NCBI GenBank assembly: GCA_041739995.1
Contig: JBGSMV010000046.1
Location: 1-64,000, forward strand
DNA from: Bdellovibrionota bacterium
GTDB lineage: Bacteria; Bdellovibrionota_C; UBA2361; JBGSMV01
Direction: 5' to 3'
DNA: 64,000 nt
Positions 39,710 through 57,379 of the stretch are shown here, in pieces; positions within the stretch are counted from its first letter, which is position 1; every line of letters starts with the position of its first letter. Under the pieces are notes generated by a model that saw nothing but the letters and a program-made list of their open reading frames with translations, was not told the origin of the DNA and made no database searches. The position numbers and the translations under genes are program-made.

Positions 39710-39936
39710 ATTTCCCATATTCTCCAGGTGCCCCCTAAGCTATAGAAACGTCTCAAGAGGAGCAACCGCAGGTCCGTTATAGCTGTTAGCATGCTGACCG
39801 GCCCGTTCGGGGCCACATTGGACCTCTGGGTCGGGACGAAGAGACGGATTCGGCTAGTTCCCCCGGAGGCCTATGGGTAGCGAGGAATTTTTGCACGATA
39901 TCAGCCTCGGCGAGCTAATTGAATTTAAGGGGTCGA

Positions 39937-41304
39937 ATGAAGGCGCAGTCCAGTGATGAAAATGCTCCGTTTGTGATGCTTCGGGGAGACGATGCTTCAT
40001 TTTCGGCTATCACTTCGTTGCTGGGGCGCTTCGCCCATCGCGTCGAGCTTGTACACGATCTCGACCAGGCTCGAGAACTCGTTCAGCATCCTCTGCGTCC
40101 AACCCAAGGGCTCCTGATACCGCTTCGCTTACACGACGACAGCTCAGGAATTAAAAGTTGCCTGGAGGCCAAGGCCGATCCTCTGCTTTCTCAAGCACCA
40201 GTCGTCGGACTCACGCCTTCACGCGATCGCGCCATCTTACAGAGTTTCTACGGTGCGGGAGCGGACAGTGTGATACCTGTTCCCTTTGACGCTGAGGCGC
40301 TTTTTTTTCAACTTGACGCGTTAGTGCGAGCCTACCGCAGCATTGCTGAAATCTCGGCAGCGGGGAAAGACACGTTGGCTCTCTCAAAGGGCGCGGTCGC
40401 TGCCCTCGACGCCACTCAAGAAGCCATTGTCCTATTTGACACTGACTACAGCCCGGTCTTCGCCAATGCGGCAGCCCGTTCTTACCTTATCGCTGAAAGA
40501 GGCATCACACCCGATCAGCTCTCGAAACTTTCGAATGAACTGAAACCTAGTTTGCGCGCAGCGCTTACCGGAAAAGCTCTTCCCACATCTGAGAGCAAGA
40601 AGAATTCTCTGGCGGCTACATTTACGCAACTGCGCGGAGAACGAGGGCTTCCAATTGGCGTAGCCGTACGGCTCGCCCACCTCGCTGACATCGAGTATTT
40701 AAGCCACAACCTCGAAATTGCCTTAAGATCCCAAGCACTTTCGTTACTTGGATCTGCTGCTCTTTTAAACTCCCTTACGCGTGCACACGGGGGCTACCCC
40801 TTAACGCCTCTGCATCAGTTTTTCTCTTCTATTTCCAAAGAAACTCCCCTCACTCCGCTTGGGCCCTTACTTACGGCGCTTACAGAAGTGCTCGATAGCG
40901 TACTCCCCGCCTCCCTCGAACTCACGGTCCACGTTGAGGGAGAGCCTACCGTTTCCCTTCGACCAAGTGACGCCACGCGTCTCGTTGGCCACTTGCTGCT
41001 TTATACGGCAATGCGTTGCGGAAAAGACGGCTCAATTGCCGTAACCGCCGAACACGATCCCAGCGCCAAGGTCGTCAGTCTTTTGATCGTCGGCGAACAC
41101 GGCAAGACGCGTCTTGGCGTTCAGAGGGACTATGTCGAAGAATGCTTGAGCAACGCCCAGGGGACCCAAAAAGGCTCGGATGGGGAAAAGCTCGTGTTTG
41201 GCCTAGAAGCAGCGCAGACAATCGCCGATCAATACCACCTACAGCTTGAGTACAAAACAAACGCCTCGCATACGAAGGTGCGCATGCAGGTCTCGTGTAG
41301 CTAG
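39937..41304 (+). CDS. Degenerate REC-PAS-kinase-like signalling protein
   Basis: REC-like fold (KADPLL...PVVGLT, GADSVIPVPF) lacking the Asp and Lys; PAS-like AIVLFD..VFANAAA; HATPase-like tail without H/N/G boxes. Confidence 0.55.
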   Translation: MKAQSSDENAPFVMLRGDDASFSAITSLLGRFAHRVELVHDLDQARELVQHPLRPTQGLLIPLRLHDDSSGIKSCLEAKADPLLSQAPVVGLTPSRDRAILQSFYGAGADSVIPVPFDAEALFFQLDALVRAYRSIAEISAAGKDTLALSKGAVAALDATQEAIVLFDTDYSPVFANAAARSYLIAERGITPDQLSKLSNELKPSLRAALTGKALPTSESKKNSLAATFTQLRGERGLPIGVAVRLAHLADIEYLSHNLEIALRSQALSLLGSAALLNSLTRAHGGYPLTPLHQFFSSISKETPLTPLGPLLTALTEVLDSVLPASLELTVHVEGEPTVSLRPSDATRLVGHLLLYTAMRCGKDGSIAVTAEHDPSAKVVSLLIVGEHGKTRLGVQRDYVEECLSNAQGTQKGSDGEKLVFGLEAAQTIADQYHLQLEYKTNASHTKVRMQVSCS

Positions 41305-41676: not shown

Positions 41677-43038
41677 TTAGCGCGAGAGTAACCACCACAC
41701 GACCATCAAGATCAAGGCCAGCACCATCAAGAGACCGACGGTGAGCCAAATCTTGTCTTCCAGTGATGAACTTACTTCATCTTCGCTCACCTCTGACGAG
41801 TACCGTGACCGACCGCTCGCATCAAATCCGCCACGGGGGCGCACGAGCGATGGATCAATCGCTACAGTCTGATCGGCTCTCACATCATCCAGTGACCCGA
41901 TCTTTCCAAATGGCAAACGATCAGGATGACGCGGAGTAGGCGGTGCATCTTGGGTATCATCCGCTTCCCCCTCTCCCCAAGGAAAGGAGCGCGTTGGATC
42001 TCGCCGCCCACCAGTCACATCTCCGGCCATATCACCTGACGCCTGCATCTCAACGGACTCGTTCGCCGAGTGCGAGCCACCTGAAGGACGTGTCGCGCGT
42101 GCGGCTTCTACCCAGCCGCCTTCAGTGCTTTGCTCATGCGCGGAGGGAGTCGAAAAAGTTCCTGCAGAATGTGCGTCCCCTTGGGCGCCACTCGCGTGCG
42201 CAAGCGAAGCTCCAGAGAGTGTGCCTGCCTCGTTTGCTGAAATAGGCGATTGGCCCGGTGGCGCACTGCGAGGATCTCCTGCTGGTCCTTGCCCGAGCAG
42301 GTCTCGACTGCTCTCGCCACCACGGCGTCCACGATCCGCATCGGGCGAATCTGACGGGCTGCGCTTCGCACTCACCACGTCATTGAAGATGATCCGGAAA
42401 TGCTCAACCACTAACTCATCACGGTCCTGCAACACTCGCGTTTGGCTCAAGGCTTGGCCATTCAGCTCCACCAAAATATCTTTGGAGATAGTGAACGCCG
42501 CGACACTCTCACCACGACGCTCCACCACGAGAGATGGCAGGTCGTGCATATCGACACTTAGCTGGAGATCCGCATTCTTTCCGCCAACGACGAGAGCGCG
42601 CCCAAACTCCGGCACCGGATACTCGGACTGAAATGCCTCGCGCGAGAACACCAAAAGAGATCTGATGCCAAAACCCATTCGATCGAACTCAGCGCTCCCT
42701 CTTCGCTCCGCGTCCTCAACTTCGATCGCTACATCACCTAGCTGCAAGTAATCGCCCGGCTTTATCAAAAGCCAGACTTGTGTGGGGACCTTTTCGCCAT
42801 TCAACCAGGAGCCGTTGGTGCTACCTTCGTCCCGGTAGGTCCAGTGCTGCCCTACCCCCCGAAGCAGACCATGCACTCGAGAGACTGCGCTGCTTGGAAG
42901 CGTGATACCCCCAGGTGGCGGTTCTCGACCAAGCAGCACTTCGTCGCCCTCGACAATGGCGAGCTGCCGGCGTGAACGTTGGTCAGGGGTGCCCCCAGGG
43001 GCTTGGACGATTTGAAATAACACTATAGGGCGAGCCAT
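41677..43038 (-). CDS. FHA-domain protein with a second FHA-like domain, a disordered linker and a C-terminal TM anchor
   Basis: LLGR..., VSRVHG, DEGSTNGSWLNG, GDYLQLG; second repeat LNGQ..L.DRDEL; terminal hydrophobic helix. Confidence 0.88.
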   Translation of the reverse strand: MARPIVLFQIVQAPGGTPDQRSRRQLAIVEGDEVLLGREPPPGGITLPSSAVSRVHGLLRGVGQHWTYRDEGSTNGSWLNGEKVPTQVWLLIKPGDYLQLGDVAIEVEDAERRGSAEFDRMGFGIRSLLVFSREAFQSEYPVPEFGRALVVGGKNADLQLSVDMHDLPSLVVERRGESVAAFTISKDILVELNGQALSQTRVLQDRDELVVEHFRIIFNDVVSAKRSPSDSPDADRGRRGGESSRDLLGQGPAGDPRSAPPGQSPISANEAGTLSGASLAHASGAQGDAHSAGTFSTPSAHEQSTEGGWVEAARATRPSGGSHSANESVEMQASGDMAGDVTGGRRDPTRSFPWGEGEADDTQDAPPTPRHPDRLPFGKIGSLDDVRADQTVAIDPSLVRPRGGFDASGRSRYSSEVSEDEVSSSLEDKIWLTVGLLMVLALILMVVWWLLSR

Positions 43039-43179
43039 AGGGGGCAAAATAAACCTCAACAGCCCAAAGGTACAATAGCTCAAGCTTCGATCTATGCATT
43101 TGAAAGATAGGGACCAGATCCGGAGGCCGGGGCACATATCTAGGCCCCCTTCTCACGCATGAGGGTCCAACATCGTGCC

Positions 43180-43479
43180 TCAGGTGCTTCTCCGACGCGA
43201 AGAAGGTTGTTGCCGCTCTAACTCCGCAAGAACAGTGGCGACCGCCTCAAATAATTCTGCAGGAATAGACTGATCGAGCTCGAGCTCCCCAAGCATACGG
43301 GCGAGTCCAGAGTCCTCGCGCACGGGAATGCCATAGCGATGTGCAAGCGCCACCACTTGATCGGCATGCATGTGTTCGGCGGTCACATTCACCGCCGGGG
43401 CTGCTCCTCCAGGGGTTCCTTTCTCTCGCGCCTGATATTCAATCCCCACCGCTCTGCGGTAACGCGCTTCTGCGGTCAT
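43180..43479 (-). CDS. Stand-alone FlhB/SctU C-terminal (FlhB-CC/FlhX-like) domain
   Basis: RAVGIEY..AP.V...AD.VV.LA..YGIPV.ED..LAR.L..LELDQSIP.ELFEAVA.VLA. Confidence 0.88.
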   Translation of the reverse strand: MTAEARYRRAVGIEYQAREKGTPGGAAPAVNVTAEHMHADQVVALAHRYGIPVREDSGLARMLGELELDQSIPAELFEAVATVLAELERQQPSSRRRST

Positions 43480-46400
43480 CGGCCCTCCTTCGGAGCACCT
43501 CGAACACCCTGTGGCGACTTCTCAATAAGTGGATTTTTAGACCTACTCTGCCCTTCTGTAGCTTCTGTCCGTGCTTGATCGGGTCGATCTGCCCTTTGTG
43601 CGTAATCAGACGATCCCTTTGATCCCTCCTTTCCCAGTCCGGAAGGATACGGTGGCATCTGCGGGATTGAGCTTCGCTTCCGCTCTGCCACACCCTGATG
43701 CACTTCACCGGGATGCACAGCACCGGGAGCAAATGAACCCTGAGCGCGGGGAAGGACGGGAGCCACGGGTGGGATGGGGTTCTCCACCTCTGAGCTAACC
43801 CGCAAGGCAAGAGATCCTCCCGTCAGGCGATTTTCAAGAACGCTACGAATTTGTTCGCTCATCGACCAAATTCGTAGAGGTTTTTCAAAAAGCTGGCAGC
43901 GATCTCTCGCCAATTCCTTGCTTTCCCAATGCTGTAGGTCGGCAACATACCCAAAGATATTTACCGCTGGATGGATTTGGAGGATCGATGCAACAAGGTC
44001 TGTGGCTACGGTCCCGACACGATCAAGATCAATGAGGACCAGCGCTCGCACATCACGTACTTGGCGCAGCATCTGCAACAAGCGCTCGCGAGTCAACGGA
44101 ATAGCCACGTCCGCGTGCGGCCCTTCGAAGGAAGATCGCAGCGAATAGCCAATCGCAGAATCAATCTCAAACATGAAGACGTGAGTGAACTCGGTAGCTC
44201 TGTCGCTGCCGCCCACACCCACATGCGTACCGGTCGCCGTCTCGCCCGACACTGCAGGAAGATATACACTAAAGGTCGTACCCTGCCCCTGCTGGGTGCG
44301 CACCGTGATCGCTCCATCGTGCTGCTTTACGATCGAATAGGCAGACGAGAGTCCTAAGCCCGATCCACCGAATCCAAGCCCCGTGCGCGTATCAATATTC
44401 TTGGTGGTGAAAAACGGCTCAAAACATCGTGTTTGGCTCTCTGGCGTCATGCCGGGGCCATTGTCTTCAACTTCGACACGCAGATATTCCCCTGGTGCAA
44501 GTTCGGGATCTACCTCGCCTGATCTAACTTTCACGCGACGAACAAAGACTTTTACCTTTCCGTCGGACCTGCCCTCGAGCGCTTCTTTGGAGTTCACCAA
44601 TAGATTGGTAATGACCTGCTGCAACTGGCTCTGATCGGCAACGATTGGCGGCGCGTCAGAGGTGACATCATACTCGAGCTCAATTCCCGCGCCGAGCACT
44701 GAGCGATAAAGCTCTTTGGAGTCTTCAAGAAAGCTCTGCACTGAAAGAGTGGTAGGGGCAAAACCGCCCTGCATAGAAAAATTGAATAGCTGCTTCACAA
44801 GGCTGGCCCCTTTTGAGGCCGCATCATTAATCATGCGCGCTGACTGAGTGACTCTCTTGTCGTGGCCCATCTGCATCTCTATCAAAGAAGCCTGACCCAT
44901 CACTGCTTGCAGAAGATTATTGAAATTATGCGCCACCCCAGAAGCAAGTAAGCCTGCCATGCGCATCTTGTCGGCATCCGCCATGCGCGCTTCGAACTTT
45001 CTGGCGAGAATTACAGTGGCGATCTCCGTGGCCATGCTGTTCAGCAATGGAAGTTTGCGCTGCACAAAGAATGTCGATGGCACTGCCGGTTCAACTACTA
45101 GTACGCCGACCACTTGCCCCAAAGCGACCAGAGGCACAATGACAATGGTTCCACAGTTCAAGCGCGCAAGCACTCGCCCAAGATCGCCGCATTCCTGCTC
45201 GGCGGAGGCGTCGAATACCACAGGAGATCTGGTGCGAATGGCGCGATCGAGCAACTGATTCTTGGCGCCAAGTTCGACTTGCATGTCCACTACGTGCTTA
45301 CGAATTCCTGGGCCCACACCTGCGGTGCCCATCAAGTGAGAACCACGATTGTTCATCACTCCAAGCCACATGCGCTTGCACGCAATTTCTTCTTGAATTG
45401 AAGGAAAGGCATGCTCGGCCACTTCCTTCAGAGTCATTTGCTTTGAGAGTTCGTGGCTTAAGCGATAGAGCGCAGACAGCGAGCTTGAATGTCTTTTCTC
45501 TGCGGCATAGAGCTCAGCTTGTCGAGCGGCCAATGCGATCTGTGCGCATGCAGCCGAAACAAGATCATAATCATCCGTTGAGTACTGCGCTTCAGTTCTG
45601 CGGAAAAGAACCATGACCCCGAGCACCTGTTCCTCGAAAACAAGTGGCATGATGATGGTGGCTCGAACTCCCTCGCGCCGCGCAAGTTCGACTGCGGCAC
45701 GTGGTTCTTGTTGAATGTTGCTGAGCAACACACCCTCACGGCGGTCGACTGCGTCTCGCGCCAGGGTGTGCTTCCCGATAATCGCGCCGACATCTTCTAC
45801 ATACTGACTGGACAGCCCCTCTGCCGCGACCACTTCCAGCTGACCTGTTGAGGGATCGATCAGTCCGCTAAAACCACAATCACTTCCCGTCGCGCGAATA
45901 AGTGCTCTTAAACCTTTGAGCGCGACCACACTGGGATCCAAATTTAGCTCAAGAGAACGCGCCACTTCATACAGCGCCTCAATGCGACGCCCTTGAGAAC
46001 GAGAACGCTCTTCTGCGGCGCGACGTGCAGTGGTATCAACCCAGAACCCTTCCCAACCCATCAAGCTTGGATTGACCTGATCTGAGCCATTCGCAAAAAA
46101 TGGAATCGCACGCATTAATATCCAGCGCACCTCTCCAGTCAGCTGATTGGTGACCTGAACTTCATCATTGAACTCGCCAAACGGCAGAGAACGCGCGCGG
46201 CGCAATACTCGTCTTAACTCATGTGCTCGAAAAGAGCGTCGCCAACGCGAGGGGGAGGAAAGCAGTTCGTCCGCTGGGAAACCAAACAGGCGTTGGGTGT
46301 CCCCCACAAGTTCAGTCACTCTCAATGCAGGATCGGTACGAACGATCAGGAGCTCTCCGTGCTCTGCGATCCTTCGATATGATGAACGGCGCTGCTCTTC

Positions 46401-47006
46401 TAAATCGCCTGCGGCAGCGTCCGCTCTTTCGGCAACACGAGACTCAATTTCTGAGGGCTTAGAAACAAGACTGAGTGGAGACGACTCCACTTCGGTTTCC
46501 TTCAAGTCAGCGCGATGCTCTGGCGAGGTATAAAAGTCATCCCGCGATCCAATCTCCCTCTCGATACGAAGCCCAAGCAGAGTAGCTGCTAATTCTGAAT
46601 AGGCTCGCTCCTCTCCACGCAGGCGAAGATGCTCATGAATCGTGAAGGCTTCCAAAGCGGCGACCATGCGATCTCCAGCATACACCGGAACTAGCAGATA
46701 CGATTTGACTCCATTCTCTTCGAGCTGCTCTCGAAGCATCGGGTCGATTCGCTGTCGCTGGGGATCGGAGACGAACAGCGGTAGACGCATCGCACGCCCT
46801 CGAAGCGAAGCTTCGCCGGAGCGAATAGTAATTCCTGCGACGGAGCTTGAACTCCAGGATTCGCCACTTTCAGAAAGAAGGATAACCTGGTCGAAATTAA
46901 GAAATTCAGAGAAGAGTTTGGCGACGATCTGCGACGCGTGAGACGTATCTCTGGAGGCAGAGAGCGCTTTGCGAAGCGAGGCCAGAGGTGAAAACGCTTC
47001 AGTCAC
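43476..47006 (-). CDS. GAF-PAS-GAF-GAF hybrid sensor histidine kinase with an atypical receiver
   Basis: LASGVAHNFNN H-box, NLLVNS, DNGPG, FEPFFTTK, GSGLGL; GAF motifs (PLV..EQVLGV); receiver with LIDLD and FEKP. Confidence 0.92.
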   Translation of the reverse strand: MTEAFSPLASLRKALSASRDTSHASQIVAKLFSEFLNFDQVILLSESGESWSSSSVAGITIRSGEASLRGRAMRLPLFVSDPQRQRIDPMLREQLEENGVKSYLLVPVYAGDRMVAALEAFTIHEHLRLRGEERAYSELAATLLGLRIEREIGSRDDFYTSPEHRADLKETEVESSPLSLVSKPSEIESRVAERADAAAGDLEEQRRSSYRRIAEHGELLIVRTDPALRVTELVGDTQRLFGFPADELLSSPSRWRRSFRAHELRRVLRRARSLPFGEFNDEVQVTNQLTGEVRWILMRAIPFFANGSDQVNPSLMGWEGFWVDTTARRAAEERSRSQGRRIEALYEVARSLELNLDPSVVALKGLRALIRATGSDCGFSGLIDPSTGQLEVVAAEGLSSQYVEDVGAIIGKHTLARDAVDRREGVLLSNIQQEPRAAVELARREGVRATIIMPLVFEEQVLGVMVLFRRTEAQYSTDDYDLVSAACAQIALAARQAELYAAEKRHSSSLSALYRLSHELSKQMTLKEVAEHAFPSIQEEIACKRMWLGVMNNRGSHLMGTAGVGPGIRKHVVDMQVELGAKNQLLDRAIRTRSPVVFDASAEQECGDLGRVLARLNCGTIVIVPLVALGQVVGVLVVEPAVPSTFFVQRKLPLLNSMATEIATVILARKFEARMADADKMRMAGLLASGVAHNFNNLLQAVMGQASLIEMQMGHDKRVTQSARMINDAASKGASLVKQLFNFSMQGGFAPTTLSVQSFLEDSKELYRSVLGAGIELEYDVTSDAPPIVADQSQLQQVITNLLVNSKEALEGRSDGKVKVFVRRVKVRSGEVDPELAPGEYLRVEVEDNGPGMTPESQTRCFEPFFTTKNIDTRTGLGFGGSGLGLSSAYSIVKQHDGAITVRTQQGQGTTFSVYLPAVSGETATGTHVGVGGSDRATEFTHVFMFEIDSAIGYSLRSSFEGPHADVAIPLTRERLLQMLRQVRDVRALVLIDLDRVGTVATDLVASILQIHPAVNIFGYVADLQHWESKELARDRCQLFEKPLRIWSMSEQIRSVLENRLTGGSLALRVSSEVENPIPPVAPVLPRAQGSFAPGAVHPGEVHQGVAERKRSSIPQMPPYPSGLGKEGSKGSSDYAQRADRPDQARTEATEGQSRSKNPLIEKSPQGVRGAPKEGR

Positions 47007-47017
47007 GACGAATCAGC

Positions 47018-47806
47018 TTAAGAGAGACTATTTCGTTCAACAATAATAACTCGGGCCCGTTTCACACGGCGCTCTACTTCGCGTAGCGCCAATGCCTCGT
47101 GCAATGCCCTTCTTGCACTCTTGAGGAGTGGATCACCCTCCTCTTCTCGATAATCCCGACGAACCTCATCGGTTGTCATGGACATTTCCCTTAAAAAACT
47201 TCGTCGGTTGAGCACATACTCCACTGCTCCCAGAAGAAGCAGCATTACACCTGCGATGGCTGACAACACGATCAGCTCTGACCGACACCAGTCCAGCAAC
47301 ACTCTCACATCCGAACCAAACAATTCGAATGCAGAGCGAAAGGAGCTGTTTAAAACCAAAAACAACCCGGTGCCCAAAAGGGCTACCATCAGGATTGTCC
47401 GCCATACTCGCAGCATGCCAGTCCACACTGTGCCGAATCCGGCAAAGGGACTACATCGCTCCAACTGCGGACTTAAGAGTGCCCACGCGAAACGCAACCC
47501 GACCTGAAAGAACTCGAACAGCAGTCCTACGAGCGCCCCGGCTCCCAAACTAATTAAAAGAAATGAAAGCGCGGACTCTAGGAAAGAACGAACGCAGCCG
47601 AACCCTTCGGTTCTGACATCGTTAAAACAATAGTTTAGCAAGATTGTGGGGCTTACCCAACCTGACTGCAGCAGCCAGCCTGCACATAGGCAGACTGCCA
47701 AAGCTGCGGCATTTTGCGTTAAAATTCGGCTCCTTACCACCCTACCGCGTTTACGGGCGTCTTCTAGACGGCGCTGTGTCGGGGCGTGTCCTTTGTACTC
47801 AGCCAC
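47018..47806 (-). CDS. flhB: FlhB/SctU export switch protein, TM + CN part only (lacks NPTH and CC)
   Basis: K.H.PT.RRL.DARKRG.V.RS, four TM helices, M.MT.DEVR.DYREEEGDP..KS.RR; ends VKRARVIIVERNSLS. Confidence 0.88.
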   Translation of the reverse strand: MAEYKGHAPTQRRLEDARKRGRVVRSRILTQNAAALAVCLCAGWLLQSGWVSPTILLNYCFNDVRTEGFGCVRSFLESALSFLLISLGAGALVGLLFEFFQVGLRFAWALLSPQLERCSPFAGFGTVWTGMLRVWRTILMVALLGTGLFLVLNSSFRSAFELFGSDVRVLLDWCRSELIVLSAIAGVMLLLLGAVEYVLNRRSFLREMSMTTDEVRRDYREEEGDPLLKSARRALHEALALREVERRVKRARVIIVERNSLS

Positions 47807-48650
47807 CGATTCCTCCTAAAAAAGAGTCAGAATCGGGCTCCTTCTGGCCGTTCTGGAGAGCTTGAGGGCCGCTCTGAGAGGCCTCCGATACCGGCACCAG
47901 AGCGGAAAGTACCACCGCCGGCTGCGCAAGTTGTTGAAGACTCGAGAACAATCCAAGCTGCCAAGAACCGACAGCCATAGTCCACAGCAGCAGTGATTTT
48001 ATGAGAAACACTTCGCTGGTGAATGAGACCTGCGGCATTACTTTGGAAACCCATCCGAAGGCCAGCTCAAGCAAGAGTGCGACGACAGAAAACCACCCGA
48101 CCAATAGAACGCACCACTGCATGGTAGAGACCGTTGCCTGCAAAGCAAACCTACAATACTGAACTACGGAACTAACGCTTGTGACCGGAGACATGCGCGC
48201 ACTCTCCAGGAAGGTCCCGACCAACTGATCGCCAAGCCCTGACAACAACAGCAGTGCCCAGATCCATGCATGCGCAAGAATCGCAAAGGACGGTTCTCCC
48301 TCCATTTGTTCCTTGGCACCTAAGGGATCAACAAAGGCTGACAGGGTTTGGCCACGTACAGTCTCAAACAGCTCTCCCCCCATAGATACCAGCGAGAGCA
48401 CTAACGCGGCGGGAAGTCCTAAACATAATCCAAAGAGAAACTCGCTTATAAAGAAATGCCACTCGAGCGTGACATTCATCGCCCCCGGCCCTATTCCACA
48501 AAACGCGAGTCCCCATGCAAGTGCCATTCGAAGCGCCAGCATCGAGGGTGAGGATCCAAGCGGGAGCAGCGTTAACATCCCCAGTGCGCGAAGCACCAGT
48601 CCCGCCACGCCCACGCCGTAAACCTGGAGATACTCGAAGACGGTGCTCAT
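47799..48650 (-). CDS. fliR: FliR/SctT export gate protein
   Basis: R.LG...LP, EFLFG..LG, GEL.E..RGQ....DP, GWVSK.MPQ; position in the P-Q-R-B operon. Confidence 0.85.
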   Translation of the reverse strand: MSTVFEYLQVYGVGVAGLVLRALGMLTLLPLGSSPSMLALRMALAWGLAFCGIGPGAMNVTLEWHFFISEFLFGLCLGLPAALVLSLVSMGGELFETVRGQTLSAFVDPLGAKEQMEGEPSFAILAHAWIWALLLLSGLGDQLVGTFLESARMSPVTSVSSVVQYCRFALQATVSTMQWCVLLVGWFSVVALLLELAFGWVSKVMPQVSFTSEVFLIKSLLLWTMAVGSWQLGLFSSLQQLAQPAVVLSALVPVSEASQSGPQALQNGQKEPDSDSFLGGIGG

Positions 48651-48910
48651 GACATTTGACCGAAATATACCAGGCTGCTCAGCATGTCCTGCATAAAGCG
48701 AACCAACTTCTCGCTGAAGAAATCTGCTCCGACAATTAAAACGGCGCTGACGGTGACCACTCGCACCAGAAACTGCACTGTCTGTTCTTGAATCTGTGTT
48801 GCTGCTTGAAACACGGAGAGCACGAGACTGACGACACAGCTGACGAGCAGAGGAATTCCGCTTATGATCGCGACAAGTAACAGCCCTTCAGCTACCAATG
48901 TATCAAACAC
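48647..48910 (-). CDS. fliQ: FliQ/SctS export gate protein
   Basis: SG.PLLV...V.LV.SVFQAATQIQEQT..F. Confidence 0.93.
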   Translation of the reverse strand: MFDTLVAEGLLLVAIISGIPLLVSCVVSLVLSVFQAATQIQEQTVQFLVRVVTVSAVLIVGADFFSEKLVRFMQDMLSSLVYFGQMS

Positions 48911-48948: not shown

Positions 48949-49689
48949 TTACTGATAAGATTGTACGAGTCCTCGTGTGATCAGCAGCCACCCATCGGAA
49001 ACCACCAAAAGAAGAATTTTCAACGGAAGTGCCACCATGATGGGGCTCACCATCGTCATCCCCATGCCGACCAGAAGATTTGCCACGATTAGGTCGACCA
49101 CCAAAAACGGCAATAGCAGCACGAATCCCATCGCAAACGCTTCTTTGATCTCGGTAAGCACGAATGCGGGTAACAGCACTCGAAGCGAGAGCACTTCAGC
49201 AGGAGTGCTCGTCCCCTCACCCTCAAGCGGTTGATCAGACGCGGCACCAAGCTCTTTCAAGGCATGAATTTCTCTCTCTCCGGCATGCCGCTCTAAAAAC
49301 CGCCTAAGCGGTGCGAATACTTCGACTGCCACCTGCCCGGCCTGCTCCATAGAAAGCGCCCGTATATCTCCTGCGGGAAGGGCCTTTGCACATTCATCGA
49401 ATACCGGGGCCATGGCATACCCGGTGATTGCGACCGACATCGCCATCACTACCAAGCCGCTCGGCGTGTGTTGAGTTCCCAATGCGCTGCGAACCATGCC
49501 CAGCACCACACTCACTTTGAGATATGCGGTAAAAAGTCCCATGACCATCGGAACAAGTGCGAACACTGTGGCGATAACGATGAACCACCCAGGGTGTATC
49601 GCTCCCCATTGGCTTCCTGCGAGCTGCGCGGCACCGCTTTGAGCTGAACCGAAGTGTTGCTCGATTCCTGCTATCAGATCAGGCTTCAT
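48949..49689 (-). CDS. fliP: FliP/SctR export gate protein
   Basis: TAYLKVSVVL.MVR.ALGTQ.TP, LLPAFVL.EIKEAF.MGF...LPFLVVDLIVANLL...GM.MVSP...LPLK.LL.V..DGW. Confidence 0.95.
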   Translation of the reverse strand: MKPDLIAGIEQHFGSAQSGAAQLAGSQWGAIHPGWFIVIATVFALVPMVMGLFTAYLKVSVVLGMVRSALGTQHTPSGLVVMAMSVAITGYAMAPVFDECAKALPAGDIRALSMEQAGQVAVEVFAPLRRFLERHAGEREIHALKELGAASDQPLEGEGTSTPAEVLSLRVLLPAFVLTEIKEAFAMGFVLLLPFLVVDLIVANLLVGMGMTMVSPIMVALPLKILLLVVSDGWLLITRGLVQSYQ

Positions 49690-50062
49690 ACGTTTCTCCA
49701 CTTGCTAGATGAAATGGTAGAAGCGTGGTCGTTGAGGCGCGCACTTCAGAGATGTGGGGATGCCCAGAAGCTTCTCTTGTCGTTTTCTGCTCTGCGACTC
49801 CCTTCTCGCTCAGTACTTGAACTCCCCGAGAGGAAGTGGCGAGCATCCACTGCCTGTCCCCCCACTCCACGACAACAAGGCGTTGCTCCCGACCTATATT
49901 GATGGCCTCTCGAATCCGCATACCCACCTCGGCACGTTTTCCAATGCCGATTCTTCGCATGCGCACTGTGCGTACGGTGACTCCCCACAACACCAGGAGC
50001 ACGACGAGAAACGCTGCGCTACGCGCAAGCACTTTCAAATCTTCGGCGTTAAAAATCTCCAT
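49679..50062 (-). CDS. fliO: FliO-like export gate chaperone
   Basis: One TM helix, then MRI.E.INIG.EQRLVVVE.G...WML..S..GV.VL; directly upstream of fliP. Confidence 0.8.
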   Translation of the reverse strand: MEIFNAEDLKVLARSAAFLVVLLVLWGVTVRTVRMRRIGIGKRAEVGMRIREAINIGREQRLVVVEWGDRQWMLATSSRGVQVLSEKGVAEQKTTREASGHPHISEVRASTTTLLPFHLASGETYEA

Positions 50063-50068
50063 ATGTGC

Positions 50069-51127
50069 CTATCTCCTTAAGTATCCCTGCTGATTTCGTG
50101 GCTGCTCTCTATCACCGTCACAAACTTGATATCCTTTGCGGGTGAGTGCTGCTCGCACTTCTCGCAACGATCGTGAAAGTAGATGTCGATCCGCCAATTT
50201 TTCAGGGGCAATCATCATGCTGACTTGGCCCTCGACTGATCGGGAGATCTGCACCTGCACTACTCGGCCACCTTCTAACTGATATCCAAATCGCACCGAC
50301 TTCGGAGCTCCTTGCGCATCTGTTTCGACCCCCGATGTTTCAGAATTTTTCTGTAGGTGTGCAGCAAGGGCCTGTTTCCATTCGAGGACTCTTGCCGACT
50401 CTCCGCGAGCTTCAGGCGCTGACCCTGGTGAATTGAAATTGCGTTGATCTCGACTTTCACTAGAACCCTGCCCCATGCCGGCATTTCCTTCGGAAAGGCC
50501 TGCCAAGTTTGCCAAGTTTGATTCCGGCGCGCTCACGGCGAGCGGCTCCACAGAAGCCACAGATTCTGCAGACGAGCATGGCATTTCGGATTCTTTTAAA
50601 TGCTCGAATGCTCCAGCGCTCGACTTCTTGGTCTTGTCACACTGACGCCGAGAACCGACCAGCTGAGTGAGCTCGTCTGCTTGCGCGAATTCGCTTTGGA
50701 TCGCCTTCTTTCGCCCAAGCACTCGAACCATTTCGTCCAGACACTCTGCTCTTTGACGATGAAGACCAAGACTCTGAGTAGCTTGTGCCACGGTGTCGCG
50801 CTGCTCCCGCAGCTTAAGACCTGCAGAGCTCGCCGCAGTCCGTGCGTCTGCACCAATGTGTTGCGCACGCTTAACGGCTGCTTCGCAGCATTCTAGGATA
50901 AGACGCGGAGAACTATTGGTATGGCCCGGCCGCTCAGATCTCTCCCGTTCAACGCGCGAACGAGCCGCCCCAAACGCCGCTTCAAAAGCGCTGCGCTCCT
51001 GGGCAGCTTGGCTCTCGGTGACTCGAAGCGAAGAGCTTCGCTGGTGAAGTTGCACTTCGGCGTTTCTCACCAGACTTCGCTCGTACTCAGCTCTTCGCTG
51101 CACTATTTCGTTATCGAGCATTTCCAT
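50069..51127 (-). CDS. Coiled-coil (FliJ/SctO-like) protein with a C-terminal FliK/SctP T3S4-like domain
   Basis: N-terminal ~150-aa charged helix; low-complexity linker; C-terminal G..V.VQI....G.V.MMI......LL...L.E.R.AL...GY.V. Confidence 0.55.
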   Translation of the reverse strand: MEMLDNEIVQRRAEYERSLVRNAEVQLHQRSSSLRVTESQAAQERSAFEAAFGAARSRVERERSERPGHTNSSPRLILECCEAAVKRAQHIGADARTAASSAGLKLREQRDTVAQATQSLGLHRQRAECLDEMVRVLGRKKAIQSEFAQADELTQLVGSRRQCDKTKKSSAGAFEHLKESEMPCSSAESVASVEPLAVSAPESNLANLAGLSEGNAGMGQGSSESRDQRNFNSPGSAPEARGESARVLEWKQALAAHLQKNSETSGVETDAQGAPKSVRFGYQLEGGRVVQVQISRSVEGQVSMMIAPEKLADRHLLSRSLREVRAALTRKGYQVCDGDREQPRNQQGYLRR

Positions 51128-51178
51128 CGATCCTCTCCTTGCGAACCGCTGTTGCCGGCGCACTTTCCTTTGAGGTTG

Positions 51179-51565
51179 TTAGGGCTGTGATTGAAGTTTC
51201 TTGAGTGTCCCCTGAAAGCTATCCGCCACCTTTCCAATCATCTCGACTCGCAGATTCAGCTCGCCGGCTTTGATTTGGTACATCAGTAGCTCACGTGCGC
51301 TGAGCGACTTACCTTGCATGGCGGCATCACGAATTCCTAGCAAATCACGGTGGAGCGCTGTATCGAATACGTCGCCAATACTTGCGCCTCTCACACTTGC
51401 ACTTTGCGTAGTTCCTTCTATCCGCGGCTGCTCCTTTACCTTGTCGAGTACCTGCTGGAAACTTGGCTCAGAAGTCACATTCAGTCGTTGTGGTACCGCA
51501 GAGGTGGGCGCAGCCTGTGAAACAGACGACTGTGAAATAGCAAAGGCAGAGGTAATACTTTCCAT
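51179..51565 (-). CDS. SctI (inner rod)-like small protein
   Basis: C-terminus LSARELLMYQIKAGELNLRVEMIGKVADSFQGTLKKLQSQP matches the rod pattern (LL.xQ......EL..KV......L..L..Q); first gene of the export operon. Confidence 0.65.
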   Translation of the reverse strand: MESITSAFAISQSSVSQAAPTSAVPQRLNVTSEPSFQQVLDKVKEQPRIEGTTQSASVRGASIGDVFDTALHRDLLGIRDAAMQGKSLSARELLMYQIKAGELNLRVEMIGKVADSFQGTLKKLQSQP

Positions 51566-51790
51566 AGGGATGCAGCTCCTTCGGGCACGGAGTTTACGGA
51601 TCACCTCACAAGACTTCGGTGACCAGAGTCGAAGCGCTAATCGGAGATTTGGTGGAAAAGTTTCCTCCTGAGCATATAGGCTCAGGCAGCGCGGTAACCG
51701 CCTGGAACGATTTGCAAAAAAAACCACCTTAATGAGGTGTGCAGGAAAACTGCGAGAGGAGTGCTATGAAGGTTGCGCGCCGAAACCGTC

Positions 51791-52750
51791 CTATCGAGTC
51801 TCGCCGTCATCATCGGCCGCCCCGCCTAAAAGATCAGCTGGAGATTTAAGCCCCTGGGGTTCTTCAGGTGAGCCGACAAAATCTTCGCTTCGAAAATCAT
51901 CAGATCTTGCGCCAAAGAGAAGGTCGGCGAGGGACACGCTATCGTCATCACCTTCTTCTCCTCGCGCACCCCGGAGCCCACTAAGACTCACCTCTTCACC
52001 CGGCGCCAGTCCAACAGCCGGAGCCTTGAGCCCCCGACGAAACTCGGGAAACACAGGATCGTCGGCTCTGGCTGGCTCGCCCTGTTCTTCTAGGAGACGA
52101 TCCAGTGCAGATCTTAATCTAATGACATCGTAGCTCACCCGCAGGGCGACCCCTTGAATGCGAGCCACTAGATTCGCTCTGTCAATATTAGAGAACGTGA
52201 CCTCGGCGAGACGATTCGGATTCCACCTCACGTCCGCCGCTTCAAACGCCCGCCGCAACTCATCCGTAAGTTCACGTCGAGCGCTCGCGGCAACGTCAAT
52301 CGGTTCACTCACTTCTCCATTCCTTTCACCGATCACTCCGCTATTCACTGCTCCATTCACGGCGCGGTTCACGGCACCATTCAAGCTGCCATTTTGATCA
52401 GTCGCAGTCCCTGCCTGGGAATGGGGAGGCTCTGTGTGATCACCGCCCCCCTGAACCGCGCGAGGCTGCGAGGGAAGCGGTCTTACTGGCGCATCTATCT
52501 CGAGAGATGTTTTCTGCGAAAGAATTCGCGGCCGAAGGCGTATCTTGGCAAGGAAATTGGGATCTCGGCGTGCAAGCACTCCGAAGGGAGAATCCTCTGA
52601 AAATCCTCGGGCCGGCCGCAAAGAGCTCGCGACAGGGGGGAGAGAACCAGAGTCTGAGGCGCTGTCCCCGACCTGCAGCGGCAAAGCAGAGCTCGAAGCC
52701 TCATCGGGCTTGTCTATATTTGTGTCCTCTCGTGGTCTTTGCTGCAACAT
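51791..52750 (-). CDS. Hypothetical, largely disordered protein with a 12-bp coding repeat (NGAV-like)
   Basis: Long ORF; repeats at about 52339-52392. Confidence 0.55.
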   Translation of the reverse strand: MLQQRPREDTNIDKPDEASSSALPLQVGDSASDSGSLPPVASSLRPARGFSEDSPFGVLARRDPNFLAKIRLRPRILSQKTSLEIDAPVRPLPSQPRAVQGGGDHTEPPHSQAGTATDQNGSLNGAVNRAVNGAVNSGVIGERNGEVSEPIDVAASARRELTDELRRAFEAADVRWNPNRLAEVTFSNIDRANLVARIQGVALRVSYDVIRLRSALDRLLEEQGEPARADDPVFPEFRRGLKAPAVGLAPGEEVSLSGLRGARGEEGDDDSVSLADLLFGARSDDFRSEDFVGSPEEPQGLKSPADLLGGAADDDGETR

Positions 52751-52864
52751 ACACCCCCACTTTCTAACAACTGCGTCAGCGTACACGAGAGCGGAGAGCT
52801 AGAAAAACACTACAAAAACGCTAAATTATGGACAACTTTGTATTTAGTGGGCTCCAGGCACACT

Positions 52865-53329
52865 TTATTTTGATTTACGAATCTCAGAAGAGTCAAGGTT
52901 GCCGGCTTCATCACGCGCAGAACCAGACGCTAATTCAGCAAGAGTAGCAATAACTTGCGCATTAAAGTCGCGCTGACGCCGCAGCGTATCTTTAAAAAAG
53001 ACCCGCAGAATCGGAAACATGCAGCGCTTCGCCGCTACAATGAGTGGTCCAATAAATTTGCGATGCGACGACAGCTTCCGCGGAGCAACGAGGTCCACTT
53101 CCCAGAGCTGACACAGTCGTCTAAGGCGCTCAAGCACTTCGTTAGAAACATTAAGGCGATGGCGCACTGGGAGAAACGTTACGTCCTGCACGTAACGCAC
53201 GTCACCTTCCTTAAACGACCCCGAAGCAATCTTCTCTCGCACGCGACCTTGAAGACTGCGTTCGAGCTCCAAGACAGAGACCGGTGATTCTTGAGGAACT
53301 GAAATCCAACCCATAGTCATTAATCTCAC
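52865..53329 (-). CDS. Hypothetical protein resembling the coiled-coil adaptor modules of glycan methyltransferases/glycosyltransferases
   Basis: SSHRKFIGPLIVAAKR....LR......RQRDFN motif; directly downstream of a GT4 gene. Confidence 0.6.
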   Translation of the reverse strand: MRLMTMGWISVPQESPVSVLELERSLQGRVREKIASGSFKEGDVRYVQDVTFLPVRHRLNVSNEVLERLRRLCQLWEVDLVAPRKLSSHRKFIGPLIVAAKRCMFPILRVFFKDTLRRQRDFNAQVIATLAELASGSARDEAGNLDSSEIRKSK

Positions 53330-54652: not shown

Positions 54653-57379
54653 GTGAGAAGTTTGGGCTCGTTTCGCCGAATTCACGACCCCAAGAAAGAG
54701 CCACAGGAAGCCTCTAAGGGGGGGCTGTCTCCTGAGATCTCTCCATCAAGTGCCTCCAAGCCCCGTCGTCCTGGAACTCTAAGCATTCGGGGAAAGACCC
54801 AGCCTATCCAAACTATTCAAGTTCAGGCTTATCAAACCGAGCCGGACCAAAGAGCGGCCCTCCATACGGAGCAGCAAAGCGCCAAGAACCAGGCCAAGAG
54901 TAGCGGCTACCCTGATGTCAAATATAACGAGGAGCATAGAAGTGGAGGCAGCGCTTCCCTCGACGAGGCGCAAGACACCTCATCACTTATCCCGGCTACC
55001 ACTTCCCACGCCACTCGACCGGTCGAGCAAGACCTGGATGCCGGGGATCTCTCTCTTAGTCAGCAAGATCTTGGTTCCCGTGGGCTACAGGATTCGCCAC
55101 CTTCATCTGTCATTCCACAGGGCGAAAGTCTCTTCTCCCGCGCCCTCTCGGACAATGCCCAAGTTCTCGTTTTCTCCTATTCACCTCAACTCAAACGCCT
55201 GGTCTCATGGAGCGGAAACTCCTTGGAGGTCCTCGGTGCCTCGGAATCCTCACTCGTGAGAGATGGAAATCTATTTTTAAGACACGTTCACCCCGATGAT
55301 CGTTTTGGGGTTCTCGCTGCGCTCGAGTGCGCGCTTGAAGGCTCCGCTCCCTATCGCATCGCCTATCGCTGGGTCCGACCAGATCGCAACGAAGTCCGTT
55401 GGCTTTTGTGCCGCGCGGCACTGCAAGACTTCACTCCTGCCCAAGACACGCTAGCGCGCGGTGGCTCAGCGCACGCCGGACGAGTGTTGCAGGTCAGTGA
55501 TGCCAAAAAAGTCGGACCACTTTTTGAGGGAATGATCATCGACGTGTCCGAGACCGGGGCTCGGATTGCTTCGCATCCGGGAGATCAGGAACTGCCGAGC
55601 ATCAAATTCCTTGAAGGCCTCCCTGAGTTATTCTTTACCCTCGACAGAGATTTCCGACTCTCACAGACTAATCGCAGAGAGGCCAAGCGCCACGAAACAG
55701 ATCGCGATAGGTTCGGTCGCAATGAGTCAACTCGAAGCGACTCTAGTCGGAGCGCTCTGCCGTCCTCTCAACATGTTCAGATAGATGCTTTGGACTTTGG
55801 GGACACAAACTTCGATGTCACTCGATTTTCTGTCGGTCGCCCGGTACTCGAAGCCTTTGGCACTGAGACTTTACGACTGCAATATGGCCGGGTGTTTGAG
55901 CAAATTCTGTCCGGGGCACTCGACTCCTACAGAACGCGCCTCAATCACGTTGAACCTCCCCTGATGCTTCAATTGTTTCCCGTATGGTCTTCCTCAGGCG
56001 AGTTCTCAGCCGGAGAGAACCCTGAGAGAACCAGGGGCGAAATCCATGGCATTCTTGGCATTGTCTCGGAGCACTCTGTCGTTGCAGGACTTGAACGCCA
56101 AGTCATGGAACTACGCAAAGCTGAGAGCATGAGATCTCTCGCTTCTGGAGTTTCGCATCATGTGAACAATGTACTTCAAGGAATATTGGGACAGGCGACA
56201 CTAATTCAGTCACATCCAGGCGACACCGCTGCGGTCGCAAAAGAAGCGCTCAGCATTAGCGAACTTGTGCAGCGCGCTTCAGAATTAATGCAGCAGCTGT
56301 TCCTTTTCGATGACAGCGCAGGTGGTAGAGAGACCGCGGTAGACCTGAATCTCGCGGTCATGACCGCAGTAAGCGCCATCGAAGACTTATTTGCCAATCC
56401 TATCGAACTTCAGGTCTCATTCGGGAATCCCCTGCCGGTTTTTGCCAAGCAGCCGGTAGTAGTTGAGCTGATTCAAGAACTGCTTAGAGTCGCGAGAAAC
56501 TGCGCCCTCTCCCCACATCAACCTTCCCAACGAGCAGCATTCTCTCACCGTTCTCCCATAGAGCGCGTCACGAGAAACCATCCTGGTGAATCATTTGCCC
56601 CACATGAGCGGGTAATTCTCTCGGTAAAGACTCTGCATTGCGATACCGCGCCGGTCGATCTCCGAGGCCTTCAGAGTGGAAAGTTTTCACAACTTCTTAT
56701 CGCGGAGCATCCGTCGGGCAGCGAGCCCTCACGCGCTGACGTACAGCGCTCCTCTGCACGTATGGAGTCAGAGCATGGTGCGGATGTCGCATCCGCACCT
56801 TCATCTCCTCTAAGACGCATCCGTAACATTCGCTCGGTCACCAACAACCCCGCTTTTCGTAGAGCCCAAGCCTCCGCTGCGCGCATGGCGGGGACCATTA
56901 CCGTGGCACTTGACGACCAGTCGAATTTCGCCTTTTCGCTTTTTCTCCCCTCAGCAAACGTGGACGAGAATTCTCTTTTCGTTGTCGATCAACACGCCGC
57001 ACCCGAGGTTTTAATCGTCGATGACGATCTCACTATCTTGGGCACGATAGAGCACCTTTTACGGAATTTCGGCTACGAATGCGTCACCACACAGTCGGGC
57101 TCCAGAGCACTTGCGATGGCGCACGCATATCGCGCGTCCCTTAAGCTCGTCCTGCTCGACGCGATTATGCCAGGAGAAGACAGCGTCTCCCTACTCTCCT
57201 CTCTGCAAAAATTGAATCAGAGCTTAAAGATCGTCGGATTTACTGGTGCCGGGTCAGAAACAAGCAGTCTGATGTTAGCAGCGGGGGCTTCTCGCGTTTT
57301 GAAGAAGCCCGTGGAACCTAGTCTTTTGAGAGACGTGCTCCACTCCCTCATTGGAACCTCAAGCGCGATGAATTCATAG
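54653..57379 (+). CDS. PAS-containing hybrid kinase-like protein with an intact receiver and a degenerate ATPase domain
   Basis: PAS (HVHPDDR..YR..RPD...RWL), LASGVSHHVNN H-box, no DxGxG/F/G2 boxes, receiver IVDDD/LLD/KKP. Confidence 0.8.
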   Translation: MRSLGSFRRIHDPKKEPQEASKGGLSPEISPSSASKPRRPGTLSIRGKTQPIQTIQVQAYQTEPDQRAALHTEQQSAKNQAKSSGYPDVKYNEEHRSGGSASLDEAQDTSSLIPATTSHATRPVEQDLDAGDLSLSQQDLGSRGLQDSPPSSVIPQGESLFSRALSDNAQVLVFSYSPQLKRLVSWSGNSLEVLGASESSLVRDGNLFLRHVHPDDRFGVLAALECALEGSAPYRIAYRWVRPDRNEVRWLLCRAALQDFTPAQDTLARGGSAHAGRVLQVSDAKKVGPLFEGMIIDVSETGARIASHPGDQELPSIKFLEGLPELFFTLDRDFRLSQTNRREAKRHETDRDRFGRNESTRSDSSRSALPSSQHVQIDALDFGDTNFDVTRFSVGRPVLEAFGTETLRLQYGRVFEQILSGALDSYRTRLNHVEPPLMLQLFPVWSSSGEFSAGENPERTRGEIHGILGIVSEHSVVAGLERQVMELRKAESMRSLASGVSHHVNNVLQGILGQATLIQSHPGDTAAVAKEALSISELVQRASELMQQLFLFDDSAGGRETAVDLNLAVMTAVSAIEDLFANPIELQVSFGNPLPVFAKQPVVVELIQELLRVARNCALSPHQPSQRAAFSHRSPIERVTRNHPGESFAPHERVILSVKTLHCDTAPVDLRGLQSGKFSQLLIAEHPSGSEPSRADVQRSSARMESEHGADVASAPSSPLRRIRNIRSVTNNPAFRRAQASAARMAGTITVALDDQSNFAFSLFLPSANVDENSLFVVDQHAAPEVLIVDDDLTILGTIEHLLRNFGYECVTTQSGSRALAMAHAYRASLKLVLLDAIMPGEDSVSLLSSLQKLNQSLKIVGFTGAGSETSSLMLAAGASRVLKKPVEPSLLRDVLHSLIGTSSAMNS

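Follow-up and report, generated by a model that had tools for sequence, protein, structure and literature searches.

A type III secretion switch protein encoded as two genes divided at the autocleavage site, usually with a histidine kinase gene between them, in a lineage of uncultured Bdellovibrio-like bacteria

FlhB/SctU, the switch protein of type III secretion, is normally made as one chain that cuts itself in two at N|PTH, and this autocleavage is among the most conserved features of type III secretion. What does it mean when a genome encodes the two pieces as separate genes? The question is raised by a locus in contig JBGSMV010000046.1 of a Bdellovibrionota bacterium (assembly GCA_041739995.1), of which positions 1 to 64,000 were analysed (hereafter the window). 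A preliminary description, made from the letters alone, reported an flhB-like gene that stops at the NPTH position, a separate gene for the missing C-terminal subdomain (CC) and, between them, a hybrid histidine kinase. It proposed a "pre-cleaved" two-gene switch whose CC supply is coupled to the kinase. We asked whether the split is genuine, what the two products are likely to form and whether the kinase belongs to the switch. The three genes concerned are as follows.

47018..47806, minus strand: the N-half, comprising the SctU/FlhB transmembrane (TM) domain, the CN linker and the first beta-strand, 262 amino acids (aa)
43476..47006, minus strand: a soluble, multi-sensor histidine kinase, 1176 aa
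43180..43479, minus strand: the C-half, the CC subdomain of FlhB/SctU, 99 aa

The N-half matches positions 3-256 of the 335 positions of Pfam PF01312 (E-value 1.2e-42) and the C-half matches positions 262-333 (E-value 7.5e-12), leaving only positions 257-261, the NPTH site, covered by neither. The N-half has four hydrophobic segments, as does the FlhB_TM domain, its gene directly follows the SctR-S-T/FliP-Q-R genes, as in FlhB/SctU operons, and it ends in ...VKRARVIIVERNSLS* (VIIVERNSLS, then the stop), while the genome's own full-length FlhB reads KAHVVVTNPTHISIALRY at the cut point. The cytoplasmic C-domain is not on the N-half polypeptide, and CC is encoded by a separate gene 3.5 kb downstream. 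In the window and 20 aligned relatives, the N-halves end in RV+xSKVIVVE(R/K) plus 0-12 residues, as against KAHVVVTNPTH in the genome's full-length FlhB, and the C-halves start with (K/R)Y+xAVGLEY (RYRRAVGIEY in the window copy), which aligns directly after the NPTH of full-length FlhB. An N-half ending in VIVVE(R/K) and a C-half starting with Y+xAVGLEY are the signatures of this split family, and NPTH is found in neither half of any of these 21 sets. The sole NPTH-coding string in the window, at position 53303 of the plus strand, is unrelated to the locus, and such a string is expected by chance (at least one match in 33 of 100 shuffles). The half boundaries also coincide with those of chains A and B in the crystal structures of cleaved EscU and FlhB. 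In profile searches of the PDB, N-half positions 208-255 correspond to residues 5-52 of the 54 in EscU chain A and C-half positions 10-80 to residues 4-75 of the 83 in EscU chain B; the C-half profile matches FlhB chain B (3b1s_B, E-value 4.5e-19), and the whole N-half profile covers residues 1-256 of SpaS (8axk_K). Thus, the preliminary description was right that the flhB-like gene stops at the NPTH position, that no related NPTH is encoded nearby and that the missing subdomain is the product of the 99-aa gene.

Its account of the junctions also stands: the TAA stop of the N-half is followed after 11 nucleotides (nt) by the GTG start of the kinase, and the kinase stop shares an ATGA with the C-half start, four nt downstream of an AAGGAGG. 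Given the unusual layout and an assembly in 81 contigs that is 91% complete, one might suppose that the locus is decaying or misassembled, a recent kinase insertion or an assembly chimera having broken flhB. Logan contigs from four sequencing runs (X1-X4), however, span the FliR/N-half, N-half/kinase and kinase/C-half junctions with 0 differences, and so confirm the contiguity; the runs belong to one study, which may itself have supplied the assembly, and they are thus not independent of it. The same layout recurs in dozens of independently assembled genomes, the halves have dN/dS of about 0.2 (see below) and no frame-disrupting stops were found in the N-half family recovered by profile search. 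We therefore regard decay or misassembly as highly improbable.

The recurrence was assessed in 66 related loci, one per genome, picked by an N-half match alone and scored by hidden Markov models of the N-half, kinase and C-half. They comprise 20 + 10 loci of the same order, 16 of one genus and 20 of other orders of the class, and thus represent a class-level lineage. The order N-half, kinase, C-half, which the preliminary description had suggested looking for in relatives, is found in 54 of them, and 16 of the 20 loci taken from the other orders show it too. Among the 54 loci, fewer than 400 nt separate the kinase and C-half domains in 50, and 2.0-3.6 kb in the other 4. In 3 of the 66 loci the halves are adjacent and separate with no kinase between them, and in a further kinase-less genome (G006, locus L066) they are adjacent with a 4-nt overlap. 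Eight loci have an N-half and a kinase with no C-half found, the contig ending within 10 nt in 5 of these. None of the 66 related loci has a fused gene, and the C-half is syntenic with the N-half in 57.

Counting the relatives and the window's own genome, the N-half was matched in 40 of 41 genomes, in almost every case as an open frame that is some 255-290 aa long and occurs beside a 365-aa flagellar FlhB. When the N-half profile was compared with 1.84 billion representative sequences, 2633 matches were obtained at E-values of 1e-30 or below, and the best 150 were all 172-290 aa long. A homologue search for longer proteins containing the C-half scored nothing, which is weak evidence against fused forms. 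The C-half-profile matches labelled planctomycete, Desulfobacterales and Eremiobacterota proved to be ordinary full-length FlhBs adjoining FlhA, three of which carry NPTH while the Desulfobacterales-labelled one reads NPIR, and the weakest matches were short chance matches. A close-range search with the N-half gave 8 proteins, including P0154, a 350-aa full-length FlhB/SctU relative with 31% identity. P0154 reads VIVVDGSR at the NPTH position and is possibly a fused relative of the split family that cannot be cleaved.

Selection was estimated as the ratio of nonsynonymous to synonymous substitution rates (dN/dS) from pairs with unsaturated dS among 17 loci of one genus (g11; L047 and 16 others). 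The N-half had a median of 0.21, with 15 of 136 pairs usable; the other medians were 0.24 (C-half, 9 of 78 pairs), 0.04 (kinase, 5 of 105) and 0.16 (FliP, 9 of 120). All are rough figures from few pairs, because dS was saturated in most. At about 0.2, both halves appear, roughly, to be under purifying selection. Relaxed dN/dS and an intact flhB in relatives were the findings that the preliminary description had held to speak against a two-gene switch, and neither was observed. Judged from these comparisons, the split switch is a genuine, ancient and selected two-gene form that is neither an artefact nor a recent insertion.

Would the two products fit together? Residues 200-262 of the N-half were modelled with the C-half from custom alignments in three runs, alongside 3 controls. 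The complex scored 0.63, 0.63 and 0.62, compared to 0.27 for the best of the controls; of 157 solved complexes 116 attain the score mark, as do 2 of 215 mismatched pairs. At least 96% of contacts are common to the three runs, and the partner has a predicted local distance difference test score (pLDDT) of at least 68. In the model, N-half residues 253-256 (VIIV) sit between C-half residues 10-13 and 51-56, which is the strand placement found in cleaved FlhB_C and EscU_C. It should be noted that the pass may reflect the memory of the modelling program, because complexes of EscU, FlhB and YscU have already been solved; the predicted complex is thus to be read as showing likeness, not binding.

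We consider it probable, at roughly 0.7, that the locus encodes a two-gene SctU/FlhB that reassembles non-covalently into a permanently "cleaved" gate, with the kinase module as an accessory. The switch subunit would be made as two polypeptides instead of one chain that is cut by itself at N|PTH. The four TM helices would come from the N-half, together with the CN linker and the first beta-strand, the C-half would begin after the usual cut, and the two chains would join by strand insertion and fold as cleaved FlhB_C/EscU_C does. With the gate permanently "cleaved", the NPTH chemistry would have become dispensable and then been lost. The kinase, together with an FHA-domain protein and a divergently oriented neighbour (d1) described below, would form an accessory signalling module that settled early in the lineage within the gap and behind it, that is expressed together with the gate, and that may tune the expression or activity of the machine upon an intracellular signal. 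In its essentials this is the "pre-cleaved" switch of the preliminary description, which is upheld by the position of the split exactly at the autocleavage site and by the gene order conserved in relatives.

A different role for the C-half has to be weighed, one already foreseen in the preliminary description: it could be a free factor acting on another FlhB, such as the flagellar one, with the N-half working alone. Stand-alone CC proteins are common, and those of the FlhX, YlqH and fliK2-flhX types accompany a full-length FlhB. Like FlhX and YlqH, the C-half is a small soluble protein that starts just after the NPTH position, and its best NCBIfam match is TIGR00789 flhB_rel (47.8 bits, cut-off 117.35), tied with the SctU model (47.4 bits). 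The genome holds five PF01312 matches, namely a full-length FlhB, the two window halves, a 229-aa SctU stub on contig C55 that belongs to a set with no C-half nearby, and a second stand-alone CC of 93 aa on contig C42. The flagellar FlhB, however, adjoins FlhA, FlhF, FlhG and FliA and is intact, with NPTH and a CC of its own. Moreover, unlike FlhX and YlqH, the C-half keeps its synteny (the 57 of 66 loci above) with a truncated partner that lacks a CC; the N-half retains the CN linker and the CC-pairing strand, both of which the C55 stub has lost; and the complex model passes its controls. That the C-half serves another FlhB is therefore improbable.

The place of the kinase in the two-gene switch is the harder question. 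Its domain order is GAF, PAS-like, GAF, GAF, DHp, catalytic domain, receiver-like stretch and variable tail. Pfam recognises the GAF domains, a weak PAS_3, a weak HisKA and HATPase_c (E-value 1.2e-23), and the core is CckA/VirA-like. Across 18 sequences, the H-box GVAHNFNNLL, the N-box, DNGPGM and GSGLGLS show no or almost no variation, and the kinase looks catalytically competent from these motifs. It is strongly conserved and, by median dN/dS, the most constrained gene of the set. There are no real TM segments, the hydrophobic windows falling inside the GAF cores, which indicates a soluble protein. Of the earlier label "hybrid histidine kinase", the histidine kinase is upheld by the conserved boxes, while "hybrid" finds little support: no Pfam receiver domain is matched in residues 921-1176, one NCBIfam kinase model aligns through residue 1058 and the receiver-like stretch is poorly conserved. 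In family f7 (loci L043 and L048, genomes G010 and G028), the gene between the halves encodes a shorter kinase of about 550-610 aa that consists of the catalytic core only, with sensor domains not recognisable. The two further members of the proposed module are as follows.

41677..43137, minus strand: FHA-domain protein with a C-terminal membrane anchor (PF00498, E-value 2.5e-10; PF16697, E-value 3.3e-8)
39919..41304, plus strand: d1, a divergently oriented conserved neighbour whose N-terminus is receiver-like and gives way to a PAS/kinase-like region

The FHA protein has a TM segment at residues 459-486 and an SctD/YscD-like cytoplasmic domain, and its gene comes after the C-half gene in relatives. 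The d1 gene is also syntenic in relatives; the Response_reg match of its product is weak (E-value 0.026), and the body of the protein is without the usual His and ATP-binding motifs.

The kinase might be physically or functionally part of the switch, the C-half being supplied only with or through it, so that sensory input controls docking and secretion or substrate choice. Its position between the halves in 54 of 66 loci and several orders favours this, as do its constraint (0.04 over 5 usable pairs) and the tight spacing: the ATGA overlap of the window recurs in 5 of 17 relatives in longest-ORF (open reading frame) calls, and none of the 17 has a spacing above 53 nt. The C-half, on the other hand, has a strong Shine-Dalgarno sequence of its own, 2.0-3.6 kb separate the kinase from the C-half in 4 loci, and the evidence for signal-controlled switching through a kinase-coupled CC supply consists of gene order and the ATGA overlap. 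Above all, four genomes (89-96% complete) keep the split with no kinase between the halves, and a search for the kinase sensor region throughout them gave nothing at E-values of 1e-5 or below, whereas a same-genus control gave a match at 71% identity. Because these four genomes keep the split, the split is independent of the kinase. Since other orders of the class have the kinase, its loss is the simpler reading of the kinase-less loci, from whose flanks the FHA protein and d1 are absent as well. Judged by this distribution, the kinase, FHA protein and d1 would behave as an accessory module, and we consider an integral part of the kinase in the switch unlikely. That it is a built-in switch sensor, one that holds or releases the C-half, or else modifies this half, the CN tail or the FHA protein, and thereby decides post-translationally whether the gate is completed and secretion follows, we consider rather unlikely. 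Given the conserved placement, some direct functional coupling between kinase and switch may nevertheless have room within the two-gene reading.

To which machine does the two-gene switch belong? The minus-strand gene row reads u1, u2, u3, FliO, FliP/SctR, FliQ/SctS, FliR/SctT, N-half, kinase, C-half and FHA protein, and the genes upstream of the N-half are as follows.

51791..52786, minus strand: u1, function not assigned, maybe outside the conserved set
51179..51727, minus strand: u2, SctI-like (inner-rod-like) small protein with a conserved C-terminus, LLxYQIxAGxFxLxVELVSKVAES
50069..51163, minus strand: u3, coiled-coil hairpin (residues 2-189), disordered linker and C-terminal alpha/beta domain (residues 252-342)
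49679..50062, minus strand: FliO homologue (Pfam PF04347, E-value 1.3e-7; TIGR03500, E-value 5.9e-9)
48949..49701, minus strand: SctR/FliP export-gate subunit (PF00813, E-value 1.9e-51)
48647..48910, minus strand: SctS/FliQ (PF01313, E-value 2.3e-19)
47799..48650, minus strand: SctT/FliR (PF01311, E-value 4e-15), its stop overlapping the start of the next gene

The preliminary description had called the gene flhB-like, but it would not be the flagellar flhB. SctR scores 196 bits with the NCBIfam subfamily model NF009438 (cut-off 179) vs. 159 bits with the fliP model, SctS 59.5 vs. 55.4 bits with the fliQ model and SctT 41 vs. 35 bits with the fliR model. The Sct models beat the flagellar ones for the subunits R, S, T, U, V and N, but the margins are small and most scores stay under the cut-offs; among the curated cut-offs only that of the SctR subfamily model is passed. 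An SctJ-like protein is matched by the SctJ model only. By these scores, the locus would be the export gate of a divergent, non-flagellar machine resembling type III secretion systems (T3SS).

Among the upstream genes, u1 had no match in Pfam or NCBIfam and no tblastn match across 20 related loci. The synteny of u2 is kept in relatives; 10 of 16 homologues match Pfam PF17001 T3SS_basalb_I (best E-value 1.2e-5), while the window copy has no match. A gene stands at the u3 position in all 15 relatives that have both flanking markers. The AlphaFold2 model of u3 has a mean pLDDT of 74.6 and a predicted template modelling score (pTM) of 0.40, and in VIA-align comparisons its hairpin aligns to YscO (4mh6_A, Z 12.3, root mean square deviation 3.3, 157 residues aligned), CT670 (3k29_A, Z 12.1) and FliJ (3ajw_A, Z 11.6), although unrelated coiled coils score as high as YscO and FliJ. 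A search of PDB sequences gave no match for u3, and Foldseek gave nothing at E-values of 0.001 or below, the C-terminal domain not having been searched alone. From its model, u3 may combine an SctO/FliJ-like part with a FliK/SctP-like domain. Assignment of u3 as FliK/SctP-type by sequence was rejected, the Flg_hook family PF02120 being touched by only 2 of 16 members (best E-value 0.024). On the plus strand at 54653-57379, just past a glycosyltransferase gene that bounds the T3SS-like operon, a gene for a 908-aa PAS and receiver protein is followed by one for a DnaJ-domain protein.

Further T3SS genes are scattered over the genome. Contig C5 has SctJ, a weak SctQ-like protein and SctV beside a sigma factor, and contig C36 has a FliH-like protein and an SctN-like ATPase; these SctJ, SctV, SctN and FliH-like genes can be assigned to one or another T3SS-like set only presumptively. 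A second T3SS-like cluster lies on C55 (L006:2251-10158) beside DUF1501 and DUF1800 genes. It encodes three FHA proteins (one of them upstream, at L006:995-1381), SctJ-like, FliJ-like and SctQ-like proteins, FliP, FliQ, a membrane ORF and the 229-aa SctU stub, which covers model positions 2-220 only, with no linker and no C-half nearby. On contig C47 (L088:4031-13478), a 700-aa SctV homologue directly follows Tad-like genes (CpaB, a CpaF-like ATPase and two TadB/C-like genes) and precedes a kinase-like HEAT-repeat protein, a neighbourhood that recalls the Kil/T3SS* pairing of Myxococcus. The stand-alone CC on C42 (L007:8851-9132, minus strand) is of the FlhX/YlqH type and scores 84 bits with TIGR00789, below the cut-off; the adjoining gene of 178 aa has no FliK match, and a fliK2-flhX pair is thus not shown there.

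Compared to canonical FlhB/SctU proteins (YscU, EscU, SpaS and HrcU; PF01312), the two-gene form shares the 4-TM domain, the CN linker, the CC fold and the position after SctRST, and is predicted to reach a like two-chain end state joined by one beta-sheet. It differs in having two genes, no autocleavage, no NPTH and usually a kinase gene between the halves. That a CC made on its own can serve a gate protein lacking one has precedents in Xanthomonas and in Helicobacter pylori, the latter reportedly the work of Wand et al. in 2006. HrcU_C is described as working in trans in Xanthomonas, in a paper that cites the same finding for H. pylori (PMC3040844). In those cases the separate CC was built in the laboratory or was an extra copy next to a full-length FlhB, whereas across the present lineage this switch occurs only in split form, fixed naturally. 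Natural splits of other T3SS components are known, namely the secretin RhcC1/RhcC2 and HrcQA/HrcQB (PMC3574062). In these as well a core part has been fixed as two genes, sometimes with a gene between them; their splits, however, are in other components and not at a self-cleavage site. No description of a naturally split FlhB/SctU was found in the literature searched, supplements excluded.

Among whole systems, the locus recalls the "needleless" non-flagellar T3SS of the Myxococcus type (T3SS*; Herrou 2025, PMC12075869), which acts together with a Tad-like pilus (PMC12075869, PMC12428579); a basal "Myxo" T3SS type has also been described (Abby and Rocha 2012, PMC3459982). Two such non-flagellar systems per genome, both with FliO, are reported for Myxococcus (PMC12403147). 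Likewise, the Bdellovibrionota genome has two sets, an Sct-like gate with FliO, an inner-rod-like gene, an FHA/SctD-like protein and one SctV beside Tad-like genes. It belongs, however, to a different phylum-level lineage, and the cited portions of these papers make no mention of a split SctU in Myxococcus. The resemblance, taken from published descriptions, is a lead only.

Several points weigh against the reading of a permanently "cleaved" two-gene gate with an accessory kinase module. Three loci extend 2.1-5.3 kb past the kinase and show no C-half nearby, and 1 of the 66 loci has the N-half only, with neither kinase nor C-half nearby. The kinase has been kept between the halves class-wide, with tight spacing and ATGA overlaps, beyond what would be expected of a neutral insertion. 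To these are added the small number of usable dN/dS pairs, the solved complexes that may have guided the model and the provisional nature of the Myxococcus resemblance. The two-chain switch is, finally, predicted here from genes alone.

Whether it is the cleavage event or its two-chain product that matters in FlhB/SctU has so far been argued from mutants. The lineage described here would be a natural experiment, a whole lineage making the two-chain product directly from two genes and having discarded NPTH, and it suggests that what matters is the presence of two pieces and not the cut itself. It would also provide a well-sampled natural family in which to study how CN and CC come together, and it would extend the Myxococcus-like non-flagellar T3SS sets to another predatory-type lineage. 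The finding raises the question of why a conserved cytoplasmic sensor kinase is placed between the halves; if the kinase were indeed the sensor of the switch, the T3SS would be controlled in a way for which no parallel is known.

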